The translations under genes were made by a program, and so were the position numbers. The notes under the pieces were generated by a model that searched no databases, was not told where the DNA came from, and worked only from the letters and a program-made list of their open reading frames with translations. A stretch of 64,000 nucleotides of DNA from Escherichia phage phAPEC8, in the sequence record NC_020079.1; one strand, 5' to 3'. Positions 2,778-61,355 of the stretch are shown here, piece after piece (position 1 is the stretch's first letter; each line of letters starts with the position of its first letter).

Positions 2778-3160
2778 AAACAGAAATCATTATTGAAATC
2801 ATCAACGGCTATAAAGAAGCCTTTATTTTTGCTGAATCAGCAAGGGATCATGAAGGTAATTTTATTGATAACTTAGACGATTATGATTTTTCTCCTAGTG
2901 CGGATCAACGGATCGCCCAGGATGTAACAGCCTTTATTAATGCTAATCTTGCCGCTATCTCTGAGGCAATGAGCGACGGCGCAACAGCCAACCAGATCGG
3001 GAATGATTTACATTTTACCCGTAACAGTCACGGCGTAGGCTTTTGGGATCGCCCTGAAATATACACCACTAACACGGCGAACCGCCTAACCAATGCAGCT
3101 AAGTTTATGCCGAACGTGTCGGCTTACATTGGTGAAGATAATTTGATTTATATTGAATAA
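2774..3160 (+). CDS. hypothetical protein
   Basis: ORF, ATGA overlap with upstream gene. Confidence 0.5.
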   Translation: MKTEIIIEIINGYKEAFIFAESARDHEGNFIDNLDDYDFSPSADQRIAQDVTAFINANLAAISEAMSDGATANQIGNDLHFTRNSHGVGFWDRPEIYTTNTANRLTNAAKFMPNVSAYIGEDNLIYIE

Positions 3161-23780: not shown

Positions 23781-23812
23781 ATAGAAAAGGCACCCACTTG
23801 GGTGCCTTTGTT
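23781..23812. terminator. bidirectional terminator at convergent junction
   Basis: AGGCACCCACTTGGGTGCCT hairpin with T-rich tracts on both strands. Confidence 0.6.
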
Positions 23813-24085: not shown

Positions 24086-24128
24086 TTTATTCTCCTAATA
24101 AGAAAGGGGCCGAAGCCCCTTGAGTGGT

Positions 24129-24929
24129 TTATTTGTTTAAGTGGTCTTCGACCATTTTAATGAAACCTTCATTGCTGAAGGCTGTTGCAGCTTTTTCTCG
24201 GTAAACAAAAACTCCACGATCTTCATAGAGAAGTGTTTCTTCGTAATTAACTCCAGGGTTAACTACAACCATTTTTGTTCCGATGTTAAGAGCAGGAAAA
24301 AGCTCCCAGTTAAAATTGATAACTTGATTAGAGCAACCCACTACAATCACCATATCTTGAGCCGTCAAGCCGTCTAAGATGTGGTACATATCGTTATACA
24401 ATGGGGCAGTCTCCCCAAAGAACACTACATTGGGCTTCACATACTTGTAATCATCTACATCGATAGCAGCATAGCCAACATCTTTGATGATTCTATTGTC
24501 TACGATCACTTCAGGCAGGAAGCCGTGAACATGTAGAACATCTTCATGAACAACACCTGCTTGTTCCAGAAGATCATCTACGTTTGTCGTGATGTTGATA
24601 ACACGATCACAGCCGTACTCTTGGAACCACTCTGCGATCTGGTAATGCGCAGCGTTAGGAGACACACTATCCATCTCTACGCGACGTTTATTGTAGAAGT
24701 CATGAGTTTTACGGTAGAGGTTGTATCCCTCTGCATCTAATCCACCAACAGCGCCAGGAACACACTGTTCTTGCTGGTAGCCAGCACGGAAATTGAAAAT
24801 ATCGCACACTTCAGAAAGGTCGTATTCATCCCACAAAGCTTTCCCACTATCTGTATCAGTGCGGAAAGTACGTACACCGCTATCGGCGCTTAGACCCGCG
24901 CCGCTGATCACTATTAATCGTCTTGGCAT
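24129..24929 (-). CDS. SIR2-family (sirtuin-like) NAD-dependent protein, no zinc-ribbon module
   Basis: GAGLSADSGVRTFR, NAAHYQIAEW, NITTNVDDLLEQAG, HVHG, KPNVVFFGE, VVGCSNQV, VVVNP; no CxxC pairs. Confidence 0.75.
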   Translation of the reverse strand: MPRRLIVISGAGLSADSGVRTFRTDTDSGKALWDEYDLSEVCDIFNFRAGYQQEQCVPGAVGGLDAEGYNLYRKTHDFYNKRRVEMDSVSPNAAHYQIAEWFQEYGCDRVINITTNVDDLLEQAGVVHEDVLHVHGFLPEVIVDNRIIKDVGYAAIDVDDYKYVKPNVVFFGETAPLYNDMYHILDGLTAQDMVIVVGCSNQVINFNWELFPALNIGTKMVVVNPGVNYEETLLYEDRGVFVYREKAATAFSNEGFIKMVEDHLNK

Positions 24930-25417
24930 TCTTCCTCCTCATAATCATCATAATCTTCGTCATCCAAATCGTACACTTCGTCTTGAGAATAACTCACTTC
25001 AAAGTAAATATCAAACTCCGCAAACAAACGTAGAATGTTGGACATGCTGTAATAATTATCGTAGGCAGATTCAGCTTCATAGTAAACATAAAGCAAATGG
25101 TTAGCCTTATCATCTTCCAAATATTTCCCGTCTGCATACGCATAGTCTGCATATGCTTTACCTGCATCTTCCACAAGAGAACGATCAAGCAGAGTAGGAA
25201 ATGGTTTCTCTTTTTCTTTTAGTTTGCTCACCAACCAGTGTGCAATATCATGCCAATCTGCATCCTCTCCGCTGAAGCAGCTTGCGACTTCGCCAAACTT
25301 GGCATCTCCTAAGTCTCCGCTAATAGTGATCATGGTTGAACTATTGTAACCACAAGTCTCGCAATTTGAACAACTGTTGTGCACATGAATTTCTACTTGA
25401 AACATATTTCCTCCCAT
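24914..25417 (-). CDS. hypothetical protein with N-terminal Cys cluster and acidic C-terminus
   Basis: CSNCETCG; DD/EE-rich tail; overlaps SIR2 start by 16 nt. Confidence 0.5.
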   Translation of the reverse strand: MGGNMFQVEIHVHNSCSNCETCGYNSSTMITISGDLGDAKFGEVASCFSGEDADWHDIAHWLVSKLKEKEKPFPTLLDRSLVEDAGKAYADYAYADGKYLEDDKANHLLYVYYEAESAYDNYYSMSNILRLFAEFDIYFEVSYSQDEVYDLDDEDYDDYEEEECQDD

Positions 25418-25463
25418 AAAAGAAAAGCCCCCTGAAACAGGAGGCTTTGTTCAGATATCGGCA

Positions 25464-26117
25464 CTATATCAGACTTTCAAGGTATTTGTCAAGGGCTTCT
25501 TGATCACCTTGACAAACATAGCAACGGAAGTCTTGAGCCGAAGGTTGTTTATTTTCATCCCAGTCCCAATAAACATTACCCTTATAACGTGAACCAGGAA
25601 ACTCAAAAGAGGCTGTATGTGTAATGTATCCTGGGCCACCAGTGAAATCACAGAATGAGAATTGGGGGTATGCCGCCTTTACTGCCTCAATAAACCAAGC
25701 TTTACGATCTAAAGCTTCATTGATGCTATACGCATGTCTCTCCATTTCTTCCCACGTTTTCCAGACACTTCTCTCATCAGGAGAAAAGACAAGCCATTCT
25801 GGAAGGTACAGAGTGTCATAGTAATCATCATATTCGATCTCGGAGGCGCACGAAGCTGACTCCTCCAGTTTTGAGTAATCAAAAGCAGAATATACCCACC
25901 AACCATCTTCCAGTAACGCTTTGATAGGGACGAAGCCTTTATCAGCATATTGATCGAATTGTTTGACACGGTGGCTTGTGCAGTCTTCAAACTCACATTC
26001 TAAACGATATGCACCTTTTCGACGAGCCTCAAGACCGTGTGTACTGAAAATAACAACACTTCCTTCACCATCATTACGATCTACTTGATAAGCAACTACT
26101 GGTTTTGAATTTGACAT
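25464..26117 (-). CDS. hypothetical protein
   Basis: ORF tiling. Confidence 0.5.
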   Translation of the reverse strand: MSNSKPVVAYQVDRNDGEGSVVIFSTHGLEARRKGAYRLECEFEDCTSHRVKQFDQYADKGFVPIKALLEDGWWVYSAFDYSKLEESASCASEIEYDDYYDTLYLPEWLVFSPDERSVWKTWEEMERHAYSINEALDRKAWFIEAVKAAYPQFSFCDFTGGPGYITHTASFEFPGSRYKGNVYWDWDENKQPSAQDFRCYVCQGDQEALDKYLESLI

Positions 26118-26800: not shown

Positions 26801-27206
26801 TACCCCTCCATTCAAGACAAGCCATAACTTTACGCCAATCACTTTCTGTAAGAAAAATCTCGTTTGCTTTCTTCCACAAATCTAAATCGTGAAGGGTTGG
26901 AATACGATATGTTAGTTCACAGAATCTATGCTCTTCTTCTGTAATATAACCAAAATGCAGAGCCACATCGTGAAACCAACACCAACCATGCATCTCTCGA
27001 ACAACATGGTCATGCTGAGACATTGTTTTATGCCGTAAACCTAACCAACAAGGAACAGATACTTTAGTAGTCTTTAATCTGTGATCAACAGTATTAGAGT
27101 ATTCAATAATAGCTGTCAGTTTCAATCGTGCTTTTTCTAAATCCTCATGGGTCACTTTGAAATAACTTTCTGAAAGATATCCACACATATTAATAACCTC
27201 CTTCAA
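26793..27206 (-). CDS. hypothetical protein
   Basis: ORF tiling. Confidence 0.5.
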   Translation of the reverse strand: MKEVINMCGYLSESYFKVTHEDLEKARLKLTAIIEYSNTVDHRLKTTKVSVPCWLGLRHKTMSQHDHVVREMHGWCWFHDVALHFGYITEEEHRFCELTYRIPTLHDLDLWKKANEIFLTESDWRKVMACLEWRGNE

Positions 27207-28131
27207 AAGGCTTAACTACATGTTGATTAGCTTTAAAACGTTCAACATAATCGTTTTCGCCCATGTTTTCATATAGCTTAGTAACAACATAAAAGTTTTC
27301 CCAAGCATATTCCCTAAACCAACCACTAGTGATGGATGTGCAGACTTTAGATAAAGCCATTATAAAACTTTGCTTAGGGGTTGGACCTCCGATCTCTTCA
27401 CCGAAAGGAATTTGTGAACGTTCCAAAGCCAAAACACACGCTTCTTCATAAACACCTAACAGGCGCACATGTTTTGGTTGAGCAAAAAACTTTTCTTTGC
27501 TGGTCATAACTTCACTTCCATCTTTCATATAAGATTTATATGCTGGAGCATCCATTACCGCGATTGCTTCATGGATAGAATCATGATCATAAACATACGG
27601 AACCTCATCACCTTTAAAGAAGTCTTTACTTTTTACGTTTAAGTTCGGATGAGAGTAAGTGTATGTTTCTTTCTCACGCAATTCATAAATACTCTTAAGA
27701 TTTTCTGGGATCTTTGCACCCAGTGACCGCATGAAATGAATATCTTTCATAGTTTTAAAGAAGTGAGGACTATCCTTTTTAAAACGATGACTCATTTTAA
27801 GAAGGTAGAGCACATCTAAAGGAGCAACAACATGTCCAGCGTAAGTTCGACGAACATCATCAGAACCTTCACAATAACTAATCAAAGCTTCTGTGCTATC
27901 TCCTTGAGAAGCAATATCATATTCCAAATGTGCACCAGCTATCATTTTGACATGGCCTTTGTTTCCTTTACGTTCTACAAGTTCAACAAACTCATCTTGA
28001 GAGAACATTTTTGATAATTCTTCCCACTCTTGTTCTGTACACAGGTAATCTAAATCTACACAAGGGCGATACAAGTCTTTTCCCATGTCCATAGCATGAA
28101 TTTGTAATGCACGGCTACCAATTAACACCAT
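27190..28131 (-). CDS. Pol-beta-superfamily nucleotidyltransferase-like protein
   Basis: N-terminal GS-x(n)-VDLD signature (IGSRALQ...CVDLDYL). Confidence 0.4.
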   Translation of the reverse strand: MVLIGSRALQIHAMDMGKDLYRPCVDLDYLCTEQEWEELSKMFSQDEFVELVERKGNKGHVKMIAGAHLEYDIASQGDSTEALISYCEGSDDVRRTYAGHVVAPLDVLYLLKMSHRFKKDSPHFFKTMKDIHFMRSLGAKIPENLKSIYELREKETYTYSHPNLNVKSKDFFKGDEVPYVYDHDSIHEAIAVMDAPAYKSYMKDGSEVMTSKEKFFAQPKHVRLLGVYEEACVLALERSQIPFGEEIGGPTPKQSFIMALSKVCTSITSGWFREYAWENFYVVTKLYENMGENDYVERFKANQHVVKPFEGGY

Positions 28132-36870: not shown

Positions 36871-37131
36871 TTACTCCGCAATTTGAGCCATGAGATCACG
36901 CAGTTCGGTAAAACCGCCTACGTATGTTACCTCCCCGTTCACTTCAGACAGAATTTGTGGAAATGTGCGTGGAGGAACTCCGGTAAGATCAACAACTGTT
37001 TTAGTCATTGATTCTAAATCATAGTCTTGATCAAGACTTAAATATTCAAACTGTTTATTGCGCATGGTTAATAGTTGTTTTGACATTTCACAAAATTGAC
37101 AGTTAGGTTTACCAAAAATTACAAATTCCAT
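36871..37131 (-). CDS. glutaredoxin/NrdH-like redoxin
   Basis: 86 aa, N-terminal CQFC active-site motif. Confidence 0.6.
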   Translation of the reverse strand: MEFVIFGKPNCQFCEMSKQLLTMRNKQFEYLSLDQDYDLESMTKTVVDLTGVPPRTFPQILSEVNGEVTYVGGFTELRDLMAQIAE

Positions 37132-37973
37132 TACCTCTCCTTATTAAGTAATACTGCTAAAGACTGTTCAATACCTTTATTTAAATCTGATTTTGTAAGA
37201 TAGTGACTGGTTACTAGTTGTGACTTCATCGGACGTGCTGCTGGAGCATTATAGGTTGAAGCTGATACCGCCGATATCTTAACAGGTTCTGGCATCTGTG
37301 TCAAGATCTTTTCCGCAAACTCCGCCCAAGAAATAAGATGGCTTCCTGCAAAATGGTAAGTCTTAACAGACCTTGACCAACCTGTTCTTAATACTTCAAA
37401 AATAGCTTCTGCTAAATCTGGAGCATATGTTGGACAAGAGAACTGATCAGCAACAATAATAAAATCACGTTGTCCATCATTATAGCGAGACAACATGGTT
37501 TTTAGAAAGTTATTTCCAAATTCGCTATATACCGAGGCTGTTCGAATAATATATGCATTTGGGTTAACTCCTCGCACCATTTTTTCACCAAGTTCTTTCG
37601 TATACCCATAATTGTTTATTGGGTTAGGTGTAGTATCTTCAAAAATAGGATGAGAATAATTAAAAATATAGTCTGTAGAAATATGCACAAAATCAATTTT
37701 AAGTTTGCTGCACACTGCCGCAATATTTGCAGGTCCATACGCATTAACAGCCAAAGCAGTAGCAAAATCATGTTCTGCTTTATCTACAGCCGTATAAGCG
37801 GCGCAATTAATAACACCATCTACATAATCTTCAATAATAGCGTTTCGCACAGCTTCAAAATTTGTAATATCTACACGTTCTTTAGGATAAATTAAAGATA
37901 CATTTGAAGGAGCCACTTTACGTAAAGCTTGTCCCAGTTGTCCATTACCGCCCAATACCAGATATGTTAGCAT
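37131..37973 (-). CDS. rmlD: dTDP-4-dehydrorhamnose reductase
   Basis: N-terminal GGNGQLG Rossmann motif; size and operon context. Confidence 0.8.
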   Translation of the reverse strand: MLTYLVLGGNGQLGQALRKVAPSNVSLIYPKERVDITNFEAVRNAIIEDYVDGVINCAAYTAVDKAEHDFATALAVNAYGPANIAAVCSKLKIDFVHISTDYIFNYSHPIFEDTTPNPINNYGYTKELGEKMVRGVNPNAYIIRTASVYSEFGNNFLKTMLSRYNDGQRDFIIVADQFSCPTYAPDLAEAIFEVLRTGWSRSVKTYHFAGSHLISWAEFAEKILTQMPEPVKISAVSASTYNAPAARPMKSQLVTSHYLTKSDLNKGIEQSLAVLLNKER

Positions 37974-38533
37974 ACACCCTCGCTACGTAACTGTTGAAAA
38001 GATTTAGCCATTGCATCTTTTGTTGATAGAATAGGTTTAAAACCTTCGTCAAAAATCATATCGAAGCCCCAATCGATCCCTATATCAGGATCATCCCAAC
38101 GTAAACTTTGTTCACTAGAAGGGTCGTATGGAGTTGTGCATTTGTATTCAAAGATAGCATCCATACTCAAAACTATAAAACCATGAGCCAAACCAGGCGG
38201 AAGCCAAAACTGCGTATGGTGTCGTGCACGAAGAACAACACCGTCCCAAGCACCGTAAGTTGGACTATCTTTACGTAAATCTACAGCGAAATCCAATACT
38301 TCCCCACTTACACAACGAACTAGCTTACCTTGCGGGTTATTTGTTTGAAAGTGCATTCCTCGCAAAACACCGAAGTTTGATTTAGACATGTTATCTTGAA
38401 CGAAAGTTTGTCTACCAATAATATCTTCGTATTTTTGTTCATTATATGTTTCTAGAAAGAAACCACGATCATCTTTATAAACGTCTGGTTTGATAATTAC
38501 CGCACCTTCAATTTTTGTTTTTTCTACTTTCAT
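37967..38533 (-). CDS. rmlC: dTDP-4-dehydrorhamnose 3,5-epimerase
   Basis: [35 protein letters not shown]; start at internal ATG. Confidence 0.9.
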
Positions 38534-39408
38534 TTTCTCTCCGCTAATTTGAGTAGGTATTGCCCGTACTCTGTTTTCTTCAGTGAGTTTCCATGATACA
38601 CCAAAGTCTCTAAAGAAATCCACCCTTTTTTGAAAGCAATTTCTTCCAAGCACGCAATCTTCAATCCTTGACAGTTCTCAATAGTCTGCACGAATTGACC
38701 AGCTTCCATCAGACTGGCGTGTGTTCCTGTGTCAAGCCAAGTAAATCCTCGTCCGAGAACTTCCACTTGTAACTTCCTGTCTTCTAGGTAGCTGCGATTG
38801 ATATCAGTGATCTCCAGTTCTCCACGCGCGGAAGGGGTTACTTCTAATGCACGTTGAATAACAGAGTTATCATAGAAATACAAACCTGTGACAGCATAAT
38901 CTGATTTAGGATTTTCAGGTTTCTCTTCAATAGAAATAGCTTGACGATTACTCCCAAATTCAACCACACCGAATCGTTCAGGATCTTTCACCAAATACCC
39001 GAAAATACAAGCTCCGCCCCAAACATCTACCATCTCACTGGCGTTAATCAGTAGTTTACCAAAGCTTTGTCCGAAGAATAGGTTGTCACCTAAAATAAGA
39101 GCAACAGAGTCTTCTCCGATAAAATCTTTACCTATGATGAAAGCTTCCGCAAGACCTCGTGGCTCGGATTGGATTGCGTAAGTGAGTTTTATCCCAAACA
39201 TAGACCCATCTCCGAGAAGATACTCAAAGTCTTCCTGATCACCTGGTGTGGTGATGATTAAAATATCCTTAATGTCAGCCAACATCAATACCGATAAAGG
39301 GTAGTAGATCATGGGTTTGTCATACACAGGGAGCAATTGCTTGCTCACACTGCGTGTTACCGGATGAAGGCGGGTTCCACTTCCTCCCGCCAAAATAATA
39401 CCTTTCAT
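38530..39408 (-). CDS. rmlA: glucose-1-phosphate thymidylyltransferase
   Basis: [18 protein letters not shown]. Confidence 0.9.
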
Positions 39409-39416
39409 AACCCTCC

Positions 39417-40409
39417 TTAAATTTTCTCACTCCACCATTGAGGGTTGTTTAAGTACCATTCAATCGTTGAGTAGAGATCTTGTTCAAATGTAGAGTTTGC
39501 ACTCCAGCCCAGTTCAGACTCTATCTTAGAAGGATTGATTTCATAACGCAAGTCATGTCCTTTACGATCTTCAACAAAAGTTATCAAGTTGGAAGAAGGG
39601 TAGGTTACTGCTTCTGGATGTACAGTATCCATATAGTCACAAACCATATAGATGATCTCCATATTGGTTTTGGGATTACGTGTTCCAACATTATACGTTT
39701 GACCTGGTTCTCCACCTGTTGCCACTTGAAGAATAGCTCGCGCATGATCCTCAACAAAAAGCCAGTCTCGCACCTGGTCGCCTTTACCATACACCGGAAT
39801 CTCTTTATTCGTCAAGATACTTGTGATGATTTTTGGGATCAGCTTTTCTGGATGTTGATAAGGCCCAAAGTTATTGGAGCAGTTGGTTATCACAACAGGC
39901 AAATCGTAGGTGCGGTGCCAAGCTTTCACAAGATGGTCAGATGCTGCCTTAGACGCACTGTACGGGCTTGAAGGGGCATAAGCTGTCTCTTCGGTAAAGG
40001 GAACGCCAGAGTCTGCCATATCGCCGTACACTTCGTCTGTGGAGACGTGTACGAACATCTTCAGTTTATTTTTTGGGAGGAGCCTTGCAGCTTCCAATAA
40101 ATTGTATGTACCGATAATATTGGAGTCGATGAAAACTCGTGGATTCTTGATAGAATTATCCACATGACTTTCTGCCGCTAAGTGAATGATGAAGTCAGGA
40201 TTGCACTCTACTACTAAACTTTTGACCTGGGTTTCGTTTGCCAAATCTGTCATGCTTAGTTTAACGTGAGTGATATCGCCTACATTCTCAATATCTGCTG
40301 CATAGCCCATCTTATCAACGACAAAAACTTCGTTATTAGGATCTTGACAAAGAGAGCGCACCACGGCACTCCCAATAAAACCAAGACCACCTGTTACCAG
40401 ATAGCGCAT
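39417..40409 (-). CDS. rmlB: dTDP-glucose 4,6-dehydratase
   Basis: [16 protein letters not shown]; extended SDR fold. Confidence 0.9.
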
Positions 40410-52119: not shown

Positions 52120-52845
52120 TTACTTGTTAATAATACCTGCAATATTAGGTTTGACAAAGGTCGATGGTTTCATGATCTTACCTTTATCATCAAAGAACAC
52201 ATACACTTTCTGTTTTTCATTATAAACAGCATGAACACCAGTGTATGCCCCTTCTGGACGATTGGCATTTCGTTCTTCAATTGCAGCGCATTCTTGTGCA
52301 ATGGCTGAATCGATATCCGAAGTTTTCCAAGTTTTCAGCAACTGTTGTTTAGTTGGATACTTGGAATCATTACTTTTCAATACCTCTTTAATAACTTTCT
52401 TTTCTGGATATTTTGAACGGATTAGAGTGTCACGAGACATACGCATAATACCAGCAGCCATTAGTGCCATTTGAACTGGCTCTGTAAATGTTTGTTCCAA
52501 AGCATCAAAATCAGTATACACAGTTGGAGTAAAAACATCGCCTACAGCATAGTCCAAGAAATTCATCGTATGTTCTTCACCAAAGAACATGTAAGTCAGA
52601 TAACTGGATACTACAAAAATATCCGCTGCTGCATCCAAGAGTTCTACATGATCGTTTACTTTCGCGGCTGTTTCATACTCTTTAAGCTCTTCACGAACGA
52701 ACCCGATTTGGGACATAAATAACTCTTGAGTGAATTCAGGTTGTTCACCACCTCGTGCTTTGGCATTCCAATCAATTACGTGCTTTGCTGCATTTTTGAA
52801 AAATTCAGTATCGAATTTAATATCTTTAAAAAAATTCTCGATCAT
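52120..52845 (-). CDS. MazG-like nucleotide pyrophosphohydrolase-like protein
   Basis: EELKEYETAA...ELLDAAADIFVV (ExxE...DxxD pattern). Confidence 0.4.
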   Translation of the reverse strand: MIENFFKDIKFDTEFFKNAAKHVIDWNAKARGGEQPEFTQELFMSQIGFVREELKEYETAAKVNDHVELLDAAADIFVVSSYLTYMFFGEEHTMNFLDYAVGDVFTPTVYTDFDALEQTFTEPVQMALMAAGIMRMSRDTLIRSKYPEKKVIKEVLKSNDSKYPTKQQLLKTWKTSDIDSAIAQECAAIEERNANRPEGAYTGVHAVYNEKQKVYVFFDDKGKIMKPSTFVKPNIAGIINK

Positions 52846-53090: not shown

Positions 53091-54218
53091 TTATTCTGCT
53101 GGTTCCCAAGTGCCTGGGATCATTTCTCGAATACGAACACCAACAGGTTTTGTTGGAATACCTTCATCTGAAAATTCTTCATACTCTATTTCAACGAACT
53201 GATTAATCAAGGTAGAAGCATTCTCTGCTTTACGATAATTGATAGTCTCATGAGCATCTTTACGCATTAAGAATTCGACTACTTTACCATTTTCCATCTC
53301 GCCTGTCAACACTCCATCACCATTTTTATCACTTTTTGAATTTATTACTTTAACTTCAAGCGTATGACGAGGCTTACGTTTAATAACATCATAAGAACGT
53401 TTATCAAATTCGTAAACTCCGTGAGCATTACGATATACTACACCTTCAGCTTTCTCAAGTAAAGCTTTTTCATAGAAAGCATCAAACTGTTCTTGGTTTT
53501 CAATATACTCTGTATGAACTACACAAATAAGCTCATCAAGACCATAATCCTCCACTACTGCCTTAAGAGCAGTAAGAACATCAACACGTTTTTCAAACGG
53601 TAGATCTGGAACTGGAATATCGTATACGTAATAGTTCAGCAAAGGTGTATTTGCATTATGCTTCTTCCAGGCACTGTTAATTTGTTGTAGACTAAGGACA
53701 CCTAACCCAGCAAACACTTCACCATCAAGAGGATGACCAACAACTTCACTAATAAAGTTTGGAATACCTTTCCAATGAGGTGGCAGGTTATACACTTCCC
53801 CAGCTTTTGATAAACACTCCCCTTTCATGTTAATCATAGAACGTAACCCGTTCAGTTTGTATTGTGCATAACCAGGGAACACAACCCTTTCAGGATAATC
53901 TTTATAATCCTGGCATTTCATTGGTGTGGAAGGAACATGGTTTTCAGCTTCTTCTTTTGTTTTATAATAGCCATTCTTTAACTGTTTTGTCCATTTGGCA
54001 AAAGCTTCAAGTTCAGCTTGTTCTTCCGGTGTTGTTTCATTGGAACGACCAATGTTTTTTGCTTCTGCTGTATAAGATTTTTCTGTGATTTTTCCACCTA
54101 CCCTTCCATGAGCTACAGTAACAACTGCACCATCTGTATACACTGTCCACTGTTTAAGTTTTCCTTTTGAATCTTTACCATACAGCGTTTGATTTGTTTG
54201 TTGCATTAGTCCTCCCAT
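53091..54218 (-). CDS. nucleotidyltransferase-superfamily ligase-like protein (DNA or RNA ligase)
   Basis: motif I-like YKLNGLR (KxNG rather than KxDG). Confidence 0.4.
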   Translation of the reverse strand: MGGLMQQTNQTLYGKDSKGKLKQWTVYTDGAVVTVAHGRVGGKITEKSYTAEAKNIGRSNETTPEEQAELEAFAKWTKQLKNGYYKTKEEAENHVPSTPMKCQDYKDYPERVVFPGYAQYKLNGLRSMINMKGECLSKAGEVYNLPPHWKGIPNFISEVVGHPLDGEVFAGLGVLSLQQINSAWKKHNANTPLLNYYVYDIPVPDLPFEKRVDVLTALKAVVEDYGLDELICVVHTEYIENQEQFDAFYEKALLEKAEGVVYRNAHGVYEFDKRSYDVIKRKPRHTLEVKVINSKSDKNGDGVLTGEMENGKVVEFLMRKDAHETINYRKAENASTLINQFVEIEYEEFSDEGIPTKPVGVRIREMIPGTWEPAE

Positions 54219-54538
54219 TTAAAAACTGAAATTTTCAATCTGTTACACACTTCATCCAAATCTGCGTCGAGTAACGTTGTAGATGTTGCCAACATATAAT
54301 CAATGCTTGTGAAACCTTGCCCTTTGGCATAGTCAAACATATCTTCATACATATCTTCTTCAGTCCCGAAACAGAAGTCACCCAAATGCCACATCTTGAC
54401 ACCTGGACTCGTAGCGCATTTATTCCATGCTTCGATCAGTGCTTCTGTCATGTGGTCCATATCTTCCCACGGTCGATATTCAGGAGCAAACTCTCGTATA
54501 CGTTTGTGCATAAAATGCAAATCACTTGTAATAAACAT
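54206..54538 (-). CDS. hypothetical protein
   Basis: ORF; DLH and GD motifs only. Confidence 0.4.
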   Translation of the reverse strand: MFITSDLHFMHKRIREFAPEYRPWEDMDHMTEALIEAWNKCATSPGVKMWHLGDFCFGTEEDMYEDMFDYAKGQGFTSIDYMLATSTTLLDADLDEVCNRLKISVFKWED

Positions 54539-55053: not shown

Positions 55054-55398
55054 TTAATAGTGCACACGAATCATTTTAATACCATAACGCAGCATGGATT
55101 CTTTTGCAAGCATGAATTTATCCCCAGCGGCGGGATTAGAAGTATGCACGAAAATGGTAGGTGAACCAAAGCAAGGTTTACCAAACGCCAGAAGTTCTTC
55201 CAGGTACAGGAAAACATCATACCCATCTTGGTCTGACTCCATACCTAAATCATTGTCAAAAGACCACTCGGTTACTCTTCGATACAGTTTAGCAGGATCA
55301 TTAAGAAAAGCCATAGCTTCTTGTGACGTTTTAAACCAAATTGCATCTTCCTGTCCATAGTCGGCTGGGTTCCGCATATCATCTATCCAAACTTTCAT
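55054..55398 (-). CDS. hypothetical protein
   Basis: ORF tiling. Confidence 0.45.
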   Translation of the reverse strand: MKVWIDDMRNPADYGQEDAIWFKTSQEAMAFLNDPAKLYRRVTEWSFDNDLGMESDQDGYDVFLYLEELLAFGKPCFGSPTIFVHTSNPAAGDKFMLAKESMLRYGIKMIRVHY

Positions 55399-59142: not shown

Positions 59143-59214
59143 GGCCCTGTAGCTCAATGGGAGAGCTGTCGGCTCATAACCGATAGGTAGCTGGATCGAA
59201 ACCAGCCAGGGCCA
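59143..59214 (+). tRNA. tRNA-Met (anticodon CAT)
   Basis: manual cloverleaf: acceptor GGCCCTG/CAGGGCC, loop CTCATAA, T-loop GATCGAA, CCA encoded. Confidence 0.75.
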
Positions 59215-59219
59215 CCAAC

Positions 59220-59291
59220 GTCTTTATGGTGTAATGGATAGCACAGGAGTCTTCTAAACTCTTAGTCAAGGTTCGATTCCTTGTAAAGACA
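59220..59291 (+). tRNA. tRNA-Arg (anticodon TCT)
   Basis: acceptor GTCTTTA/TAAAGAC, loop CTTCTAA, T-loop TTCGATT. Confidence 0.7.
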
Positions 59292-59528
59292 CCAGAACAT
59301 TTTAACATGAATTAGCTCAAGTGATTTGAACCCACTACTGATCATGGTGGCAGAGAATGAGGCAAGTATGTCAGACATTATAAACAAAGGCCACGGTTAC
59401 ATTAGAAGACATAAATGCTCGAAGAGCACCGTTCGTGGAGAACGGGGGTTGGTGGAGTCACCATTCATGGTAAAATGTTTTAAAAAACTATTGACAACTA
59501 ACATTATTTTATGTTAGATTATAAGTAT

Positions 59529-59616
59529 GGAAGGGCAAATCGACGTGGCGACGAAAACGGTCTTGAAAACCGCCGAGCTTGAAAGAGCCTTGGGAGTTCG
59601 ACTCTCCCTCCTTCCG
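59529..59616 (+). tRNA. tRNA-Ser (anticodon TGA), type II
   Basis: long variable arm; loop CTTGAAA; T arm GGGAG-TTCGACT-CTCCC. Confidence 0.7.
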
Positions 59617-59623
59617 CCAGATT

Positions 59624-59706
59624 GGTAGATTGGTGAAATGGTAGCCACGACAGTTTGCTAAACTGTAGTCGGAAACGGCGTGTAGGTTCGAGTCCTACAT
59701 CTACCG
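59624..59706 (+). tRNA. tRNA-Ser (anticodon GCT), type II
   Basis: acceptor GGTAGAT/ATCTACC; stem ACAGT/ACTGT loop TTGCTAA; long variable arm. Confidence 0.7.
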
Positions 59707-59836
59707 CCAAGTTGTTTTTAATGTAGCGTTGCGGCTACTTACTTTAGCAGAGTAAATCTTCGGCAAGTGGCGGTAACCACTTTACCGATACCGCATAGTC
59801 AGTAAGGCGAATACTGGCTACTTTAAAAACAATTTT

Positions 59837-59917
59837 GTGAGATTGGCAGAGTGGTCGATTGCGGGGGACTGTAAATCCCTTCTGAAAGGCGCGGTGGTTC
59901 GAATCCATCATCTCACA
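59837..59917 (+). tRNA. tRNA-Tyr (anticodon GTA), type II
   Basis: acceptor GTGAGAT/ATCTCAC; loop CTGTAAA; long variable arm. Confidence 0.7.
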
Positions 59918-59926
59918 CCAAATTAA

Positions 59927-60009
59927 GATGAGTTGGCTGAATGGTTTAAGCGGCGGACTGTTAATCCGTGTTCGAAAGAACGATATAGGTTCAAATCCTA
60001 TACTCATCG
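59927..60009 (+). tRNA. tRNA-Asn-like (anticodon GTT) with 15-nt variable arm
   Basis: anticodon arm GCGGA-CTGTTAA-TCCGT matches E. coli tRNA-Asn; extra GTTC-GAAA-GAAC hairpin in variable region. Confidence 0.55.
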
Positions 60010-60019
60010 CCAGAATTAT

Positions 60020-60096
60020 GGACTTGTAGAGTTAAGGTAAACCCCCAGTCGCCAAGAGGCTTCTGGAATTGCAGGTATCGAATCCTGCCGAGTCCC
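60020..60096 (+). tRNA. tRNA-like element, non-canonical, anticodon unresolved
   Basis: 7-bp acceptor GGACTTG/CGAGTCC and T-arm-like GCAGG..CCTGC, but no canonical anticodon arm and 8-nt T-loop. Confidence 0.3.
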
Positions 60097-60102
60097 AGCT
60101 TT

Positions 60103-60174
60103 GCTCCTATAGTATAATGGCTATTACAACGGTTTTGTAATCCGTGGATCTCTGTTCGATTCAGAGTGGGAGCA
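60103..60174 (+). tRNA. tRNA-Thr (anticodon TGT)
   Basis: acceptor GCTCCTA/TGGGAGC; loop TTTGTAA; T arm CTCTG-TTCGATT-CAGAG. Confidence 0.65.
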
Positions 60175-60452
60175 CCAACACAACATTAAGGGCACTGTGA
60201 TTGATCGTCGTATCCTGTGCACAAGGTCTGTTCGAAAGACAGTGTTCTTAGTATTGTGTTGATCACACAAAAAGAGTTACCTGAAACTTGACCGGAGTAG
60301 GGTTGGATGGGGCAAAAGAAGAAGCGGCTCTCCCATCGACAGCAACGAAGAATAATATTTGACTTTGGTTTTGTATTATTTTAAGTTAGCTTACCGAACG
60401 TAGGGCTAGTCACCCAACGGGATACTCGTCACTGTCCCACTCAATAAAACTA

Positions 60453-60483
60453 TTGACAACCAATAGTAAAATGTAGTATAGTA
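60453..60483 (+). promoter_or_regulatory. promoter (AACTATTGACAA ... TAGTAT) upstream of tRNA-Gly
   Basis: -35 TTGACA, 16 bp spacer, -10-like hexamer. Confidence 0.5.
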
Positions 60484-60493
60484 AAGATGTAGG

Positions 60494-60564
60494 GCGTTCT
60501 TGGTGTAGCGGTAGCATTCCGTCCTTCCAAGTCGGCGGCACGAGTTCGATCCTCGTAGAACGCT
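60494..60564 (+). tRNA. tRNA-Gly (anticodon TCC)
   Basis: acceptor GCGTTCT/AGAACGC; D-loop AGCGGTAG; loop CTTCCAA; T arm ACGAG-TTCGATC-CTCGT. Confidence 0.7.
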
Positions 60565-60666
60565 CCAAATTATTTAATAAAGGGTTGCCAGAAAACTTTC
60601 TCTTTTACTCATGGTTTTCTCCTTCTCTCACACCTCTTCTGGTTGCCCTTCATTAAATGATTTATT

Positions 60667-60739
60667 GGTTTGTAGTGTAGTCCGGTAGCACACGACACTT
60701 TGACTGTCGTAGGTTTGGTTCAAATCCAGACAGACCAGC
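60667..60739 (+). tRNA. tRNA-Gln (anticodon TTG)
   Basis: acceptor TGGTTTG/CAGACCA; stem CGACA/TGTCG loop CTTTGAC. Confidence 0.7.
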
Positions 60740-60834
60740 CATATAACAAAGGTGAGTCACTACCTCAAGTGTGAAGTTAAAAACGAGGAGCCGCCGAACA
60801 CTTTCTTTTGCGGCGTACCTTTAGAATGTTATGA

Positions 60835-60908
60835 CGGAATTTAGCTCAGTTTGGTAGAGTGTACGCTTTGGGAGCGTATTGTCGCAGGTTCGAATCCTGC
60901 AATTCCGA
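60835..60908 (+). tRNA. tRNA-Pro (anticodon TGG)
   Basis: acceptor CGGAATT/AATTCCG; D arm TAGCTCAGTTTGGTAGAG; loop TTTGGGA; T arm GCAGG-TTCGAAT-CCTGC. Confidence 0.8.
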
Positions 60909-60917
60909 CCAATTAAA

Positions 60918-60988
60918 TGTTTCGTAGTTCAATGGTAGAACCCACGACTGATAATCGTGAGATACAAGTTCGATTCTTGTCGAAACAA
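60918..60988 (+). tRNA. tRNA-Ile (anticodon GAT)
   Basis: acceptor TGTTTCG/CGAAACA; stem CACGA/TCGTG loop CTGATAA. Confidence 0.75.
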
Positions 60989-60993
60989 CCAGT

Positions 60994-61062
60994 TTCCCGT
61001 TAGACTTACAGGATAAGAGTTCCACAATTTATTGTGACGCTGGTTCGAATCCAGCACGGGAT
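60994..61062 (+). tRNA. degenerate tRNA-like element (possible tRNA pseudogene)
   Basis: 6-bp acceptor TCCCGT/ACGGGA and canonical T arm GCTGG-TTCGAAT-CCAGC, but anticodon region is a palindrome with no 7-nt loop. Confidence 0.3.
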
Positions 61063-61069
61063 ACATAAT

Positions 61070-61145
61070 AGCGGGATAGAGGAGTCTGGTCGTCCTCGCC
61101 AGTTTCATATGCTGGAGATCATTGGTTCAAATCCAATTCCCGCCT
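61070..61145 (+). tRNA. tRNA with CAT anticodon (Met, initiator or Ile-lysidine)
   Basis: D arm GAGG..CCTC; stem CCAGT/GCTGG loop TTCATAT; A1-C72 mismatch. Confidence 0.6.
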
Positions 61146-61355
61146 CCAAATATCGCTTGCCAGCGGTATCTTTGAAGACCTTGCCTGGTTCCTTCTAAGA
61201 TGGAGGGGTGCGACTCCTTAACGCACAATTATAATAAAGCATTTCAAATTAACAGTATTTATTAGCCTCCTTATTGGAGGCTTTTTGCTATCTATTGAAT
61301 AAAACTTGACTTATTATTTTTTATATGTTAAGATAAAGTTTAGGAGGATTTTATT

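Follow-up and report, generated by a model that had tools for sequence, protein, structure and literature searches.

A phage sirtuin that resembles CobB and SIRT5, has lost its zinc-ligand cysteines and overlaps the gene for an acidic protein

Introduction

Canonical sirtuins typically carry in their small domain a zinc site of the form Cys-x2-Cys ... Cys-x2-Cys, which the Pfam model of the family does not require. Class III sirtuins have as their signature a Tyr/Arg pair, which in SIRT5 and CobB binds the carboxylate of succinyl- or malonyl-lysine. The SIR2 domains of defence systems are not known to carry the zinc ribbon or its ligand cysteines. Here we describe sir2, a gene of Escherichia phage phAPEC8 (sequence record NC_020079.1), together with the small gene that overlaps its start, within a stretch of 64,000 nucleotides (referred to as the window) that derives from a Phapecoctavirus (Stephanstirmvirinae; an rV5/phi92-like myovirus of E. 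coli). The family and fold of the protein, the conservation of its catalytic residues, the loss of its zinc ligands, the gene overlap and the purifying selection acting on the locus are documented below.

The closest described group is that of Iyer, Burroughs, Anantharaman and Aravind (2022; PMC9503650, section 3.7.3), in which most phage sirtuins are assigned to a distinct clade with a proposed role in RNA repair, the removal of 2'-phosphates in analogy to KptA; the proposal was based on the linkage, in phage V5 and others, to genes for RNA ligase, kinase, cREC, MazG and phosphoesterase. The window protein falls within this clade (phrog_2162, with T5.102, rV5 and phi92 gp038). It differs in that its gene is not located beside RNA-repair genes and is coupled to a gene of family phrog_9509, and in that the phage has lost its RNA ligase; the passages of PMC9503650 that were searched hold no mention of zinc-ligand loss or of coupling. 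An identical protein of phage vB_EcoM_UP17 (UP17) is already annotated as 'NAD-dependent protein deacylase Sir2'. The phage sirtuin clade to which the window gene belongs is thus catalogued and the gene already annotated, and it will not surprise a specialist.

Results

Membership of the sirtuin family

24129..24929, minus strand: sir2, encoding a 266-residue member of the sirtuin family that is closest to class III (CobB/SIRT5) and in which every zinc-ligand cysteine has been lost (Pfam, PHROG, PDB and AF2).

A preliminary description of this DNA had reported a 266-residue open reading frame (ORF) with the sirtuin Rossmann motifs, and the ORF was confirmed at this location with every motif found: GAGLS (residues 10-14), F22-R23, TTNVD (114-118), H135-G136, FFGE (170-173), GCS (198-200) and VVN (222-224). 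The only Pfam family reported for the protein was SIR2 (PF02146; 72.4 bits compared to a gathering score of 24, E-value 5.9e-20), and the outcome which that description had allowed for, a profile placing the protein in a non-SIR2 Rossmann family, did not arise. The PHROG family phrog_2162 ('Sir2') was matched with an E-value of 8e-102, and the protein was found to have the sirtuin fold, i.e., a Rossmann domain with a small helical/ribbon domain.

Forty homologues of the window sirtuin (54-89% identity) were aligned to represent the family. Residues G10-A11-G12, S14, F22, R23, Y79, R82, N116, D118, H135, G136, F170, F171, E173, S200 and N224 were invariant in this alignment, and a variable insertion of 20-30 residues at positions 50-72 was present in some members and missing from others. 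Ratios of nonsynonymous to synonymous substitution (dN/dS) of 0.03-0.05 (0.03 compared to phage ASO2A) revealed purifying selection on sir2. By tblastn, the phrog_2162 family was detected in 979 of 50,697 phage records, including those of T5, rV5-type Vequintavirus, phi92 (gp038), Mydovirus, T5-like Salmonella phages and Vibrio jumbo phages. Identity to the window sirtuin was 100% for UP17, 69% for phi92 gp038, 53% for T5.102 of T5 and 50% over 99% of the length for the rV5-type protein.

Relationship to CobB, SIRT5 and the defence NADases

Search of PDB sequences returned E. coli CobB as the best match (E-value 1.3e-15 for the single sequence; 1.2e-24 for the family profile), ahead of Sir2Af2, Sir2Af1 and SIRT5. 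The structure comparison that the preliminary description had suggested was performed with Foldseek against PDB, and the top 50 matches were canonical sirtuins throughout, with CobB first (E-value 2.4e-17, TM 0.73/0.85) and no defence SIR2 among them. In PADLOC, a marginal and local match was detected (38 residues, E-value 5e-4). The phage sequence FY79NKR82R aligned with FY92NAR95R of CobB (the CobB Y92A crystal variant 6rxs has Ala in that column), and the Tyr-x-x-Arg of class III was present as Y79 and R82, both invariant in the 40 phage homologues. The architecture had been read earlier as that of defence NADases rather than of deacetylases; this reading was not supported, because CobB was the best match in both sequence and structure and the Tyr/Arg pair was invariant, and the Pfam and PADLOC results were likewise against it. 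The protein, thus, looks like a member of a divergent sirtuin clade of the CobB/SIRT5 type and not like a defence-type NADase.

E. coli CobB and human SIRT5 have in common with the phage protein the fold of Rossmann and small domain, the GAGxS, FR, N-D, HG and FGE motifs, and Tyr-x-x-Arg. The phage protein differs from them by an identity of only about 26%, by the replacement of the zinc cysteines, by TTN in place of TQN and by NCBIfam scores below cut-off. With the defence SIR2 NADases (ThsA, DSR, SIR2-HerA, SPARSA and the SIR2 of Avs5) it shares the superfamily and the binding of nicotinamide adenine dinucleotide (NAD+). By contrast to these systems, the phage protein is a single domain encoded in the early region of a lytic phage and not in a defence island, and neither a defence profile nor a defence SIR2 was its closest neighbor. 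Partner or sensor domains of defence systems (SLOG, TIR, HerA, pAgo, STAND or a large C-terminal domain) were found neither fused to it nor among the neighboring genes examined within about 7 kb upstream. It is also distinguished from SirTM in that no Macro-domain, lipoate-ligase or GcvH-like gene is near the phage sir2 and in that the canonical deacylases are clearly closer.

Loss of the zinc ligands

Cysteine occurs in the sirtuin solely at positions 42, 56, 107 and 199, and no cysteine, hence no structural zinc site, was detected between H135-G136 and F171-G172-E173 in any of the 40 homologues. In the family profile, the segment opposite the zinc module of CobB was equal in length in the longer members, with residues other than Cys facing the CobB cysteines; the ribbon of the window protein is 6 residues shorter compared to most relatives. 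An AF2 model generated from the 40-sequence alignment (pLDDT 89.5, pTM 0.87) placed strands at residues 136-143 and 147-150 of this segment, while a model from the single sequence (pLDDT 38.6) was discarded. Since the ribbon segment is kept in the alignment and its strands are predicted, the zinc ligands and not the module appear to have been lost. The preliminary description, which had reported the zinc module as missing, was correct in that the CxxC and zinc cysteines are absent, but the beta-ribbon itself remains according to the profile alignment and the AF2 model.

The overlapping gene and the sir2 initiation region

24914..25405, minus strand: acidic-protein gene of family phrog_9509, 163 residues, with an N-terminal CxxCG...C, a helical middle and an Asp/Glu/Tyr-rich tail.
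24914..25417, minus strand: the same phrog_9509 gene as its longest ORF, 167 residues (ORF list).
24914..24940, minus strand: sir2 translation-initiation region within the 3' end of the upstream ORF (sequence).
25463..25492, minus strand: sigma-70-type promoter, TTGACA-18 nt-TATAGT with a TG extension, 11 of 12 matches (predicted from sequence).
25424..25448, minus strand: GC-rich hairpin followed by a T-run (11 pairs, 6 of them GC), predicted intrinsic terminator of the upstream operon.
24104..24121, minus strand: intrinsic terminator-like hairpin immediately 3' of the sir2 stop codon (the equivalent ASO2A site is annotated as a terminator).

The coordinates of the upstream ORF, its CSNCETCG string, its acidic tail and a 16-nucleotide overlap with sir2 had all been given correctly in the preliminary description, and the overlap was located at 24914-24929. 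The Shine-Dalgarno sequence of sir2, GAGGAGG (24934-24940), coincides with Glu codons of the upstream ORF; the sir2 ATG (24927-24929) spans its Glu-Cys codons GAA-TGC, and its stop codon TAA occupies 24914-24916. The GAATGC arrangement was also found in ASO2A, phi92 and PaulScherrer, and an overlap is kept in both Phapecoctavirus and Justusliebigvirus (phi92 gp039/gp038, 13 nucleotides), with an upstream protein that is 37% identical. The layout reported as translational coupling, with the ATG and Shine-Dalgarno sequence of sir2 inside the upstream ORF, is thus genuine and conserved in two genera; that the two genes are coupled is read from the sequence. The Cys near the C-terminus of the upstream proteins is near-invariant in Stephanstirmvirinae because its codon overlaps the sir2 ATG. 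This residue was considered as a fourth metal ligand and rejected, given the overlap of its codon with the ATG and its absence in the wider family.

Two relatives depart from this arrangement. In a 152.7-kb metagenomic contig (L020) with matching synteny, promoter and hairpin, the upstream gene is replaced by an unrelated, uncalled ORF of 57 residues (2843-3016, GTG start), which has KEEECQDD at its end and the GAATGC arrangement, with an overlap of 16 nucleotides at the start of sir2. This replacement suggests that conservation extends to the initiation region of sir2 and its coupling with a preceding ORF, but not to which ORF that is. In Klebsiella phage FKP3 (L004:3480-4130), a gene for an HNH homing endonuclease has been inserted between those of the acidic protein and sir2. 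The FKP3 HNH gene starts at the ATG used by sir2 elsewhere, and its first three codons, MPR, are shared.

The upstream protein matched phrog_9509 over its full length (E-value 6.1e-63, residues 5-166). Its real start is probably the second ATG, at 25405 (163 residues), as GGGAGG lies 5 nucleotides upstream and most homologues begin MFQVE. The motifs C-x2-C-G and G-x2-A-x-C are invariant in phrog_9509 (C15, C18, G19, G38 and C43, counted in the 163-residue form), the three conserved cysteines corresponding to C19, C22 and C47 in the numbering of the 167-residue ORF; across the family, conservation does not include the initial Cys of CSNCETCG. Every aligned member ends in a tail rich in Asp, Glu, Tyr and Trp, and the window protein has 40 Asp and Glu residues compared to 10 Lys and Arg. 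Both proteins of the overlapping pair are acidic, with isoelectric points (pI) of 4.05 and 4.6. A dN/dS of 0.20 compared to ASO2A indicated purifying selection on the upstream gene as well.

A word-indexed homologue search with the upstream protein returned close relatives only. When 1.84 billion cluster representatives were searched exhaustively by profile, only 27 were matched, and all those checked as relatives were full-length phrog_9509 members. No significant match to the upstream protein was detected in Pfam, NCBIfam, PADLOC or PDB sequences. One of the 27, P0140 (900 residues, 8 repeats), was set aside as unrelated, since it is built of repeats and its match was to a short Cys motif. 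The label 'putative aminoacyl-tRNA synthetase' given to the phrog_9509 protein in BASEL phage records (L008:3456-4010 and others) is probably spurious, the sole match in its favor being a weak one to PhetRS_B1 (E-value 0.022, 2 of 10 members). In jumbo and T4-like phages, phrog_9509 genes are located between DUF5856 and thymidine kinase genes (L012:5001-6951, L005 and L017). In a phage of 358 kb, a NADAR-domain gene (ADP-ribose-related) lies 1 kb downstream of phrog_9509, which may be coincidence.

The predicted promoter (25492-25463) overlaps the final codons and the stop codon of the preceding gene, which encodes 217 residues. In five phages from two genera (including ASO2A, phi92, PaulScherrer and FKP3), neither promoter hexamer varies although the spacer does, and both hexamers are also found in L020. 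The hairpin at 25448-25424 is annotated as a terminator in ASO2A, and its stem is kept in phi92 and FKP3 by means of different sequences. The order of signals is unusual: a promoter, then a terminator hairpin, then a Shine-Dalgarno sequence and ATG, a layout conserved in phi92, PaulScherrer, FKP3, ASO2A and the metagenomic contig. Transcripts from the promoter would begin about 7 nucleotides before the hairpin, which would then also form the 5'-proximal stem-loop of the phrog_9509-sir2 transcript and could attenuate or stabilize it. The site is likely the early promoter of the two-gene unit, and its near-consensus sigma-70-type sequence suggests early transcription by the host polymerase.

Separation of sir2 from the RNA-repair genes

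The genes that accompany phage sirtuins in RNA-repair clusters were not found adjacent to sir2 in the window, where a cREC-like gene (55054..55398) and a MazG-like gene (52120..52845) are 27-30 kb away. Comparison to Phapecoctavirus ukendt revealed a 2.3-kb deletion (window 54206-54538, minus strand, junction at about 54352-54358) in which the genes for an Rnl1-like RNA ligase and a kinase-like ATPase, two further small genes and two thirds of a phosphoesterase gene (its C-terminal part) have been lost; a fused ORF of 110 residues is left, and sir2 is intact. A search for homologues of the Rnl1-type ligase in the window and in Dompiswa phage TSP7_1 (positions 1-87000), which together approximate the whole genome, found none. 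The deletion may be recent. The sirtuin family likewise persists in phages without a detectable Rnl1-type RNA ligase.

Discussion

The activity, substrate, expression timing and biological role that we infer for the sirtuin are as follows. Its most likely activity is that of a catalytically competent, CobB/SIRT5-like NAD-dependent deacylase, a reading to which we assign a probability of roughly 0.45. In this model, NAD+ would be bound in the Rossmann domain and acyl-lysine would be accepted in the cleft lined by V168-F171 and Y79/R82, and the presence of Tyr/Arg suggests that acyl groups with a negative charge (such as succinyl or malonyl) would be accepted as well as acetyl. With His135 as the general base, nicotinamide would be released and the products would be the deacylated protein and 2'-O-acyl-ADP-ribose. 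This route is the established mechanism of sirtuins. The small domain, devoid of the four zinc ligands, would presumably be held by the retained beta-ribbon alone. The gene would probably be transcribed early by host RNA polymerase from the conserved sigma-70-type promoter, and sir2 would be translated by coupling to whichever small ORF precedes it, here that of phrog_9509. The likely purpose would be the deacylation of host or phage proteins during infection.

Several observations weigh against a protein deacylase. The Gln of the canonical TQN(I/V)D motif is replaced by Thr (T115), which is invariant in the 40 phage homologues. Engineered loss of the structural zinc inactivates canonical sirtuins, and the fold of the phage protein must therefore compensate somehow. 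Scores against the NCBIfam models of CobB and related deacylases (NF040867, NF001753 and related) are far under the curated cut-offs (97.9 compared to 243 and 80.5 compared to 320 bits), and the sirtuin is on this account not a CobB equivalog. Transfer of ADP-ribose to another nucleophile would be equally compatible with the conserved residues. The position of the Vequintavirus orthologue inside a cluster of ligase, kinase and phosphoesterase genes points to a nucleic-acid substrate. Biochemical or genetic tests of phage sirtuins were not found in the searchable literature, which yielded only genome annotations and the comparative genomics of 2022.

The main rival is an enzyme of RNA repair, i.e., a KptA/Tpt1 analogue that transfers ADP-ribose from NAD+ onto the 2'-phosphate at a repaired tRNA or RNA junction, thereby removing the phosphate, and that works with the phage ligase, kinase, phosphoesterase, cREC and MazG against host anticodon nucleases. 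The clade to which this function was ascribed is named as including 'Escherichia phage V5' in section 3.7.3 of PMC9503650, and in the Vequintavirus EduardKellenberger the gene order is RNA ligase, a 116-residue protein, the sirtuin (50% identical to the window protein) and a 237-residue MazG-like protein, in a cluster that also has a divergent polynucleotide kinase and a phosphoesterase. Besides a carboxylate, a phosphate might be bound by the invariant Tyr/Arg pair, and the phage has 11 tRNA genes. Against this, the Stephanstirmvirinae sirtuin is encoded about 30 kb from the RNA-repair cluster, the sir2 of T5 adjoins nrdD with no ligase nearby, and Sir2 is found in 289 Salmonella-phage records compared to 14 for an Rnl1-type ligase. 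Retention of sir2 after loss of the ligase weakens an obligatory link to RNA ligation and leaves the RNA-repair explanation itself standing, as an unlikely one on present evidence. An effector of phage-host conflict is a further candidate, and the absence of zinc-ligand cysteines, as in the SIR2 domains of defence systems, would fit it. The conserved NAD-binding residues, together with the standing of NAD+ as a battleground of phages and hosts (PMC9503650), are also what would be expected of an effector that hydrolyzes NAD+ in the manner of the defence SIR2 NADases or that ADP-ribosylates a host protein or defence factor in the manner of SirTM and SIRT6; host metabolism would thereby be rewired or a defence system blocked. 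The catalytic His and the acyl-pocket residues are invariant, and a pure NADase would not need them. In addition, defence SIR2 proteins are absent from the top 50 of Foldseek, the PADLOC match is marginal and local with Pfam reporting PF02146 alone, and no Macro, SLOG, TIR, HerA or pAgo gene occurs upstream within about 7 kb. We consider such an effector quite improbable, regard the NAD+ depletion and counter-defence raised in the preliminary description as speculative, and retain the CobB/SIRT5-like deacylase as the preferred reading.

A separate question, which could be answered in the affirmative under any of these activities, is whether the acidic protein is an obligate partner. The phrog_9509 protein would then act, in stoichiometric amounts, as regulator, inhibitor or adaptor of the zinc-less sirtuin or be its substrate; for example, the knuckle of three cysteines might act in trans in place of the zinc module, or the Arg-rich acyl pocket might be filled by the acidic-aromatic tail until a signal releases it. 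This is consistent with the persistence of the overlap in Phapecoctavirus and Justusliebigvirus although the acidic protein is only 37% identical, with the bracketing of the gene pair by a predicted promoter and terminators, with the three invariant cysteines and universal acidic-aromatic tail of phrog_9509, and with purifying selection on both genes. The distribution of the two families argues otherwise: Sir2 is present in 979 phage records compared to 138 for phrog_9509, and the sirtuins of T5 and rV5, likewise without zinc ligands, have no phrog_9509 neighbor beside their genes, where one was looked for. Conversely, phrog_9509 is located between an rI.-1-like (DUF5856) gene and tk in RaK2, in the 358-kb phage and in one metagenomic contig, and beside RecA-like and exonuclease genes in a fourth contig; no Sir2 was found in the flanks examined of these four loci, on three of which the Sir2 profile was run. 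The exchange of phrog_9509 for the unrelated 57-residue ORF in L020 with the overlap unchanged and the splitting of the pair by the HNH gene in FKP3 point the same way, the near-invariant C-terminal Cys is accounted for by the sir2 ATG and is absent in the wider family, and the acidity of both proteins (pI 4.05 and 4.6) speaks against their pairing. Of the coupled pair put forward in the preliminary description, therefore, the overlap is real and conserved in two genera, while a dedicated two-protein module is weakened by the record counts, the Sir2-free loci and L020, and appears improbable. The phrog_9509 protein is more probably an early protein that is made alongside the sirtuin but independent of it than an enzyme subunit. 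Little probability is likewise given to a combined view, in which the zinc-less clade is not a protein deacylase at all, the Tyr/Arg pocket serves a non-protein substrate (RNA 2'-phosphate) or counter-defence, and phrog_9509 was perhaps added in Stephanstirmvirinae as a gate or targeting subunit; if true, the locus would represent a new two-component NAD-dependent phage system whose parts are made together by translational coupling.

The sirtuin of T5, rV5, phi92 and approximately a thousand lytic phages sits at the NAD+ battleground of phages and bacteria. The question of its function is narrowed by the results above to a deacylase-like protein that has a carboxylate- or phosphate-binding pocket, does without structural zinc and persists after loss of the RNA ligase, and the candidate activities to decide between are deacylation, removal of RNA 2'-phosphates and hydrolysis of NAD+.

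Other features of the locus

By DNA comparison, the 2.7 kb around sir2 were 99.7% identical to Dompiswa phage TSP7_1 and 99.0% identical to UP17, and matches to this region at the DNA level were found in 125 phage records. A bidirectional terminator hairpin (23786-23809) is located where the plus-strand early genes meet the minus-strand block that holds sir2. Three to four genes upstream of sir2, a 313-residue protein with DUF7277 and DUF7275 (E-value 1e-75) is encoded at 27190-28131 on the minus strand and is conserved at that position in the window, FKP3 and L020. The tRNA genes are located at 59143-61148 on the plus strand and are specific for Met, Arg, Ser, Tyr, Asn, Thr, Gly, Gln, Pro, Ile and Met. 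At 37131-40409 on the minus strand, four genes whose near-identical UP17 counterparts are labeled as the dTDP-rhamnose pathway (rmlD, rfbC, rffH and dTDP-glucose 4,6-dehydratase) represent a metabolism that is unusual for a phage.

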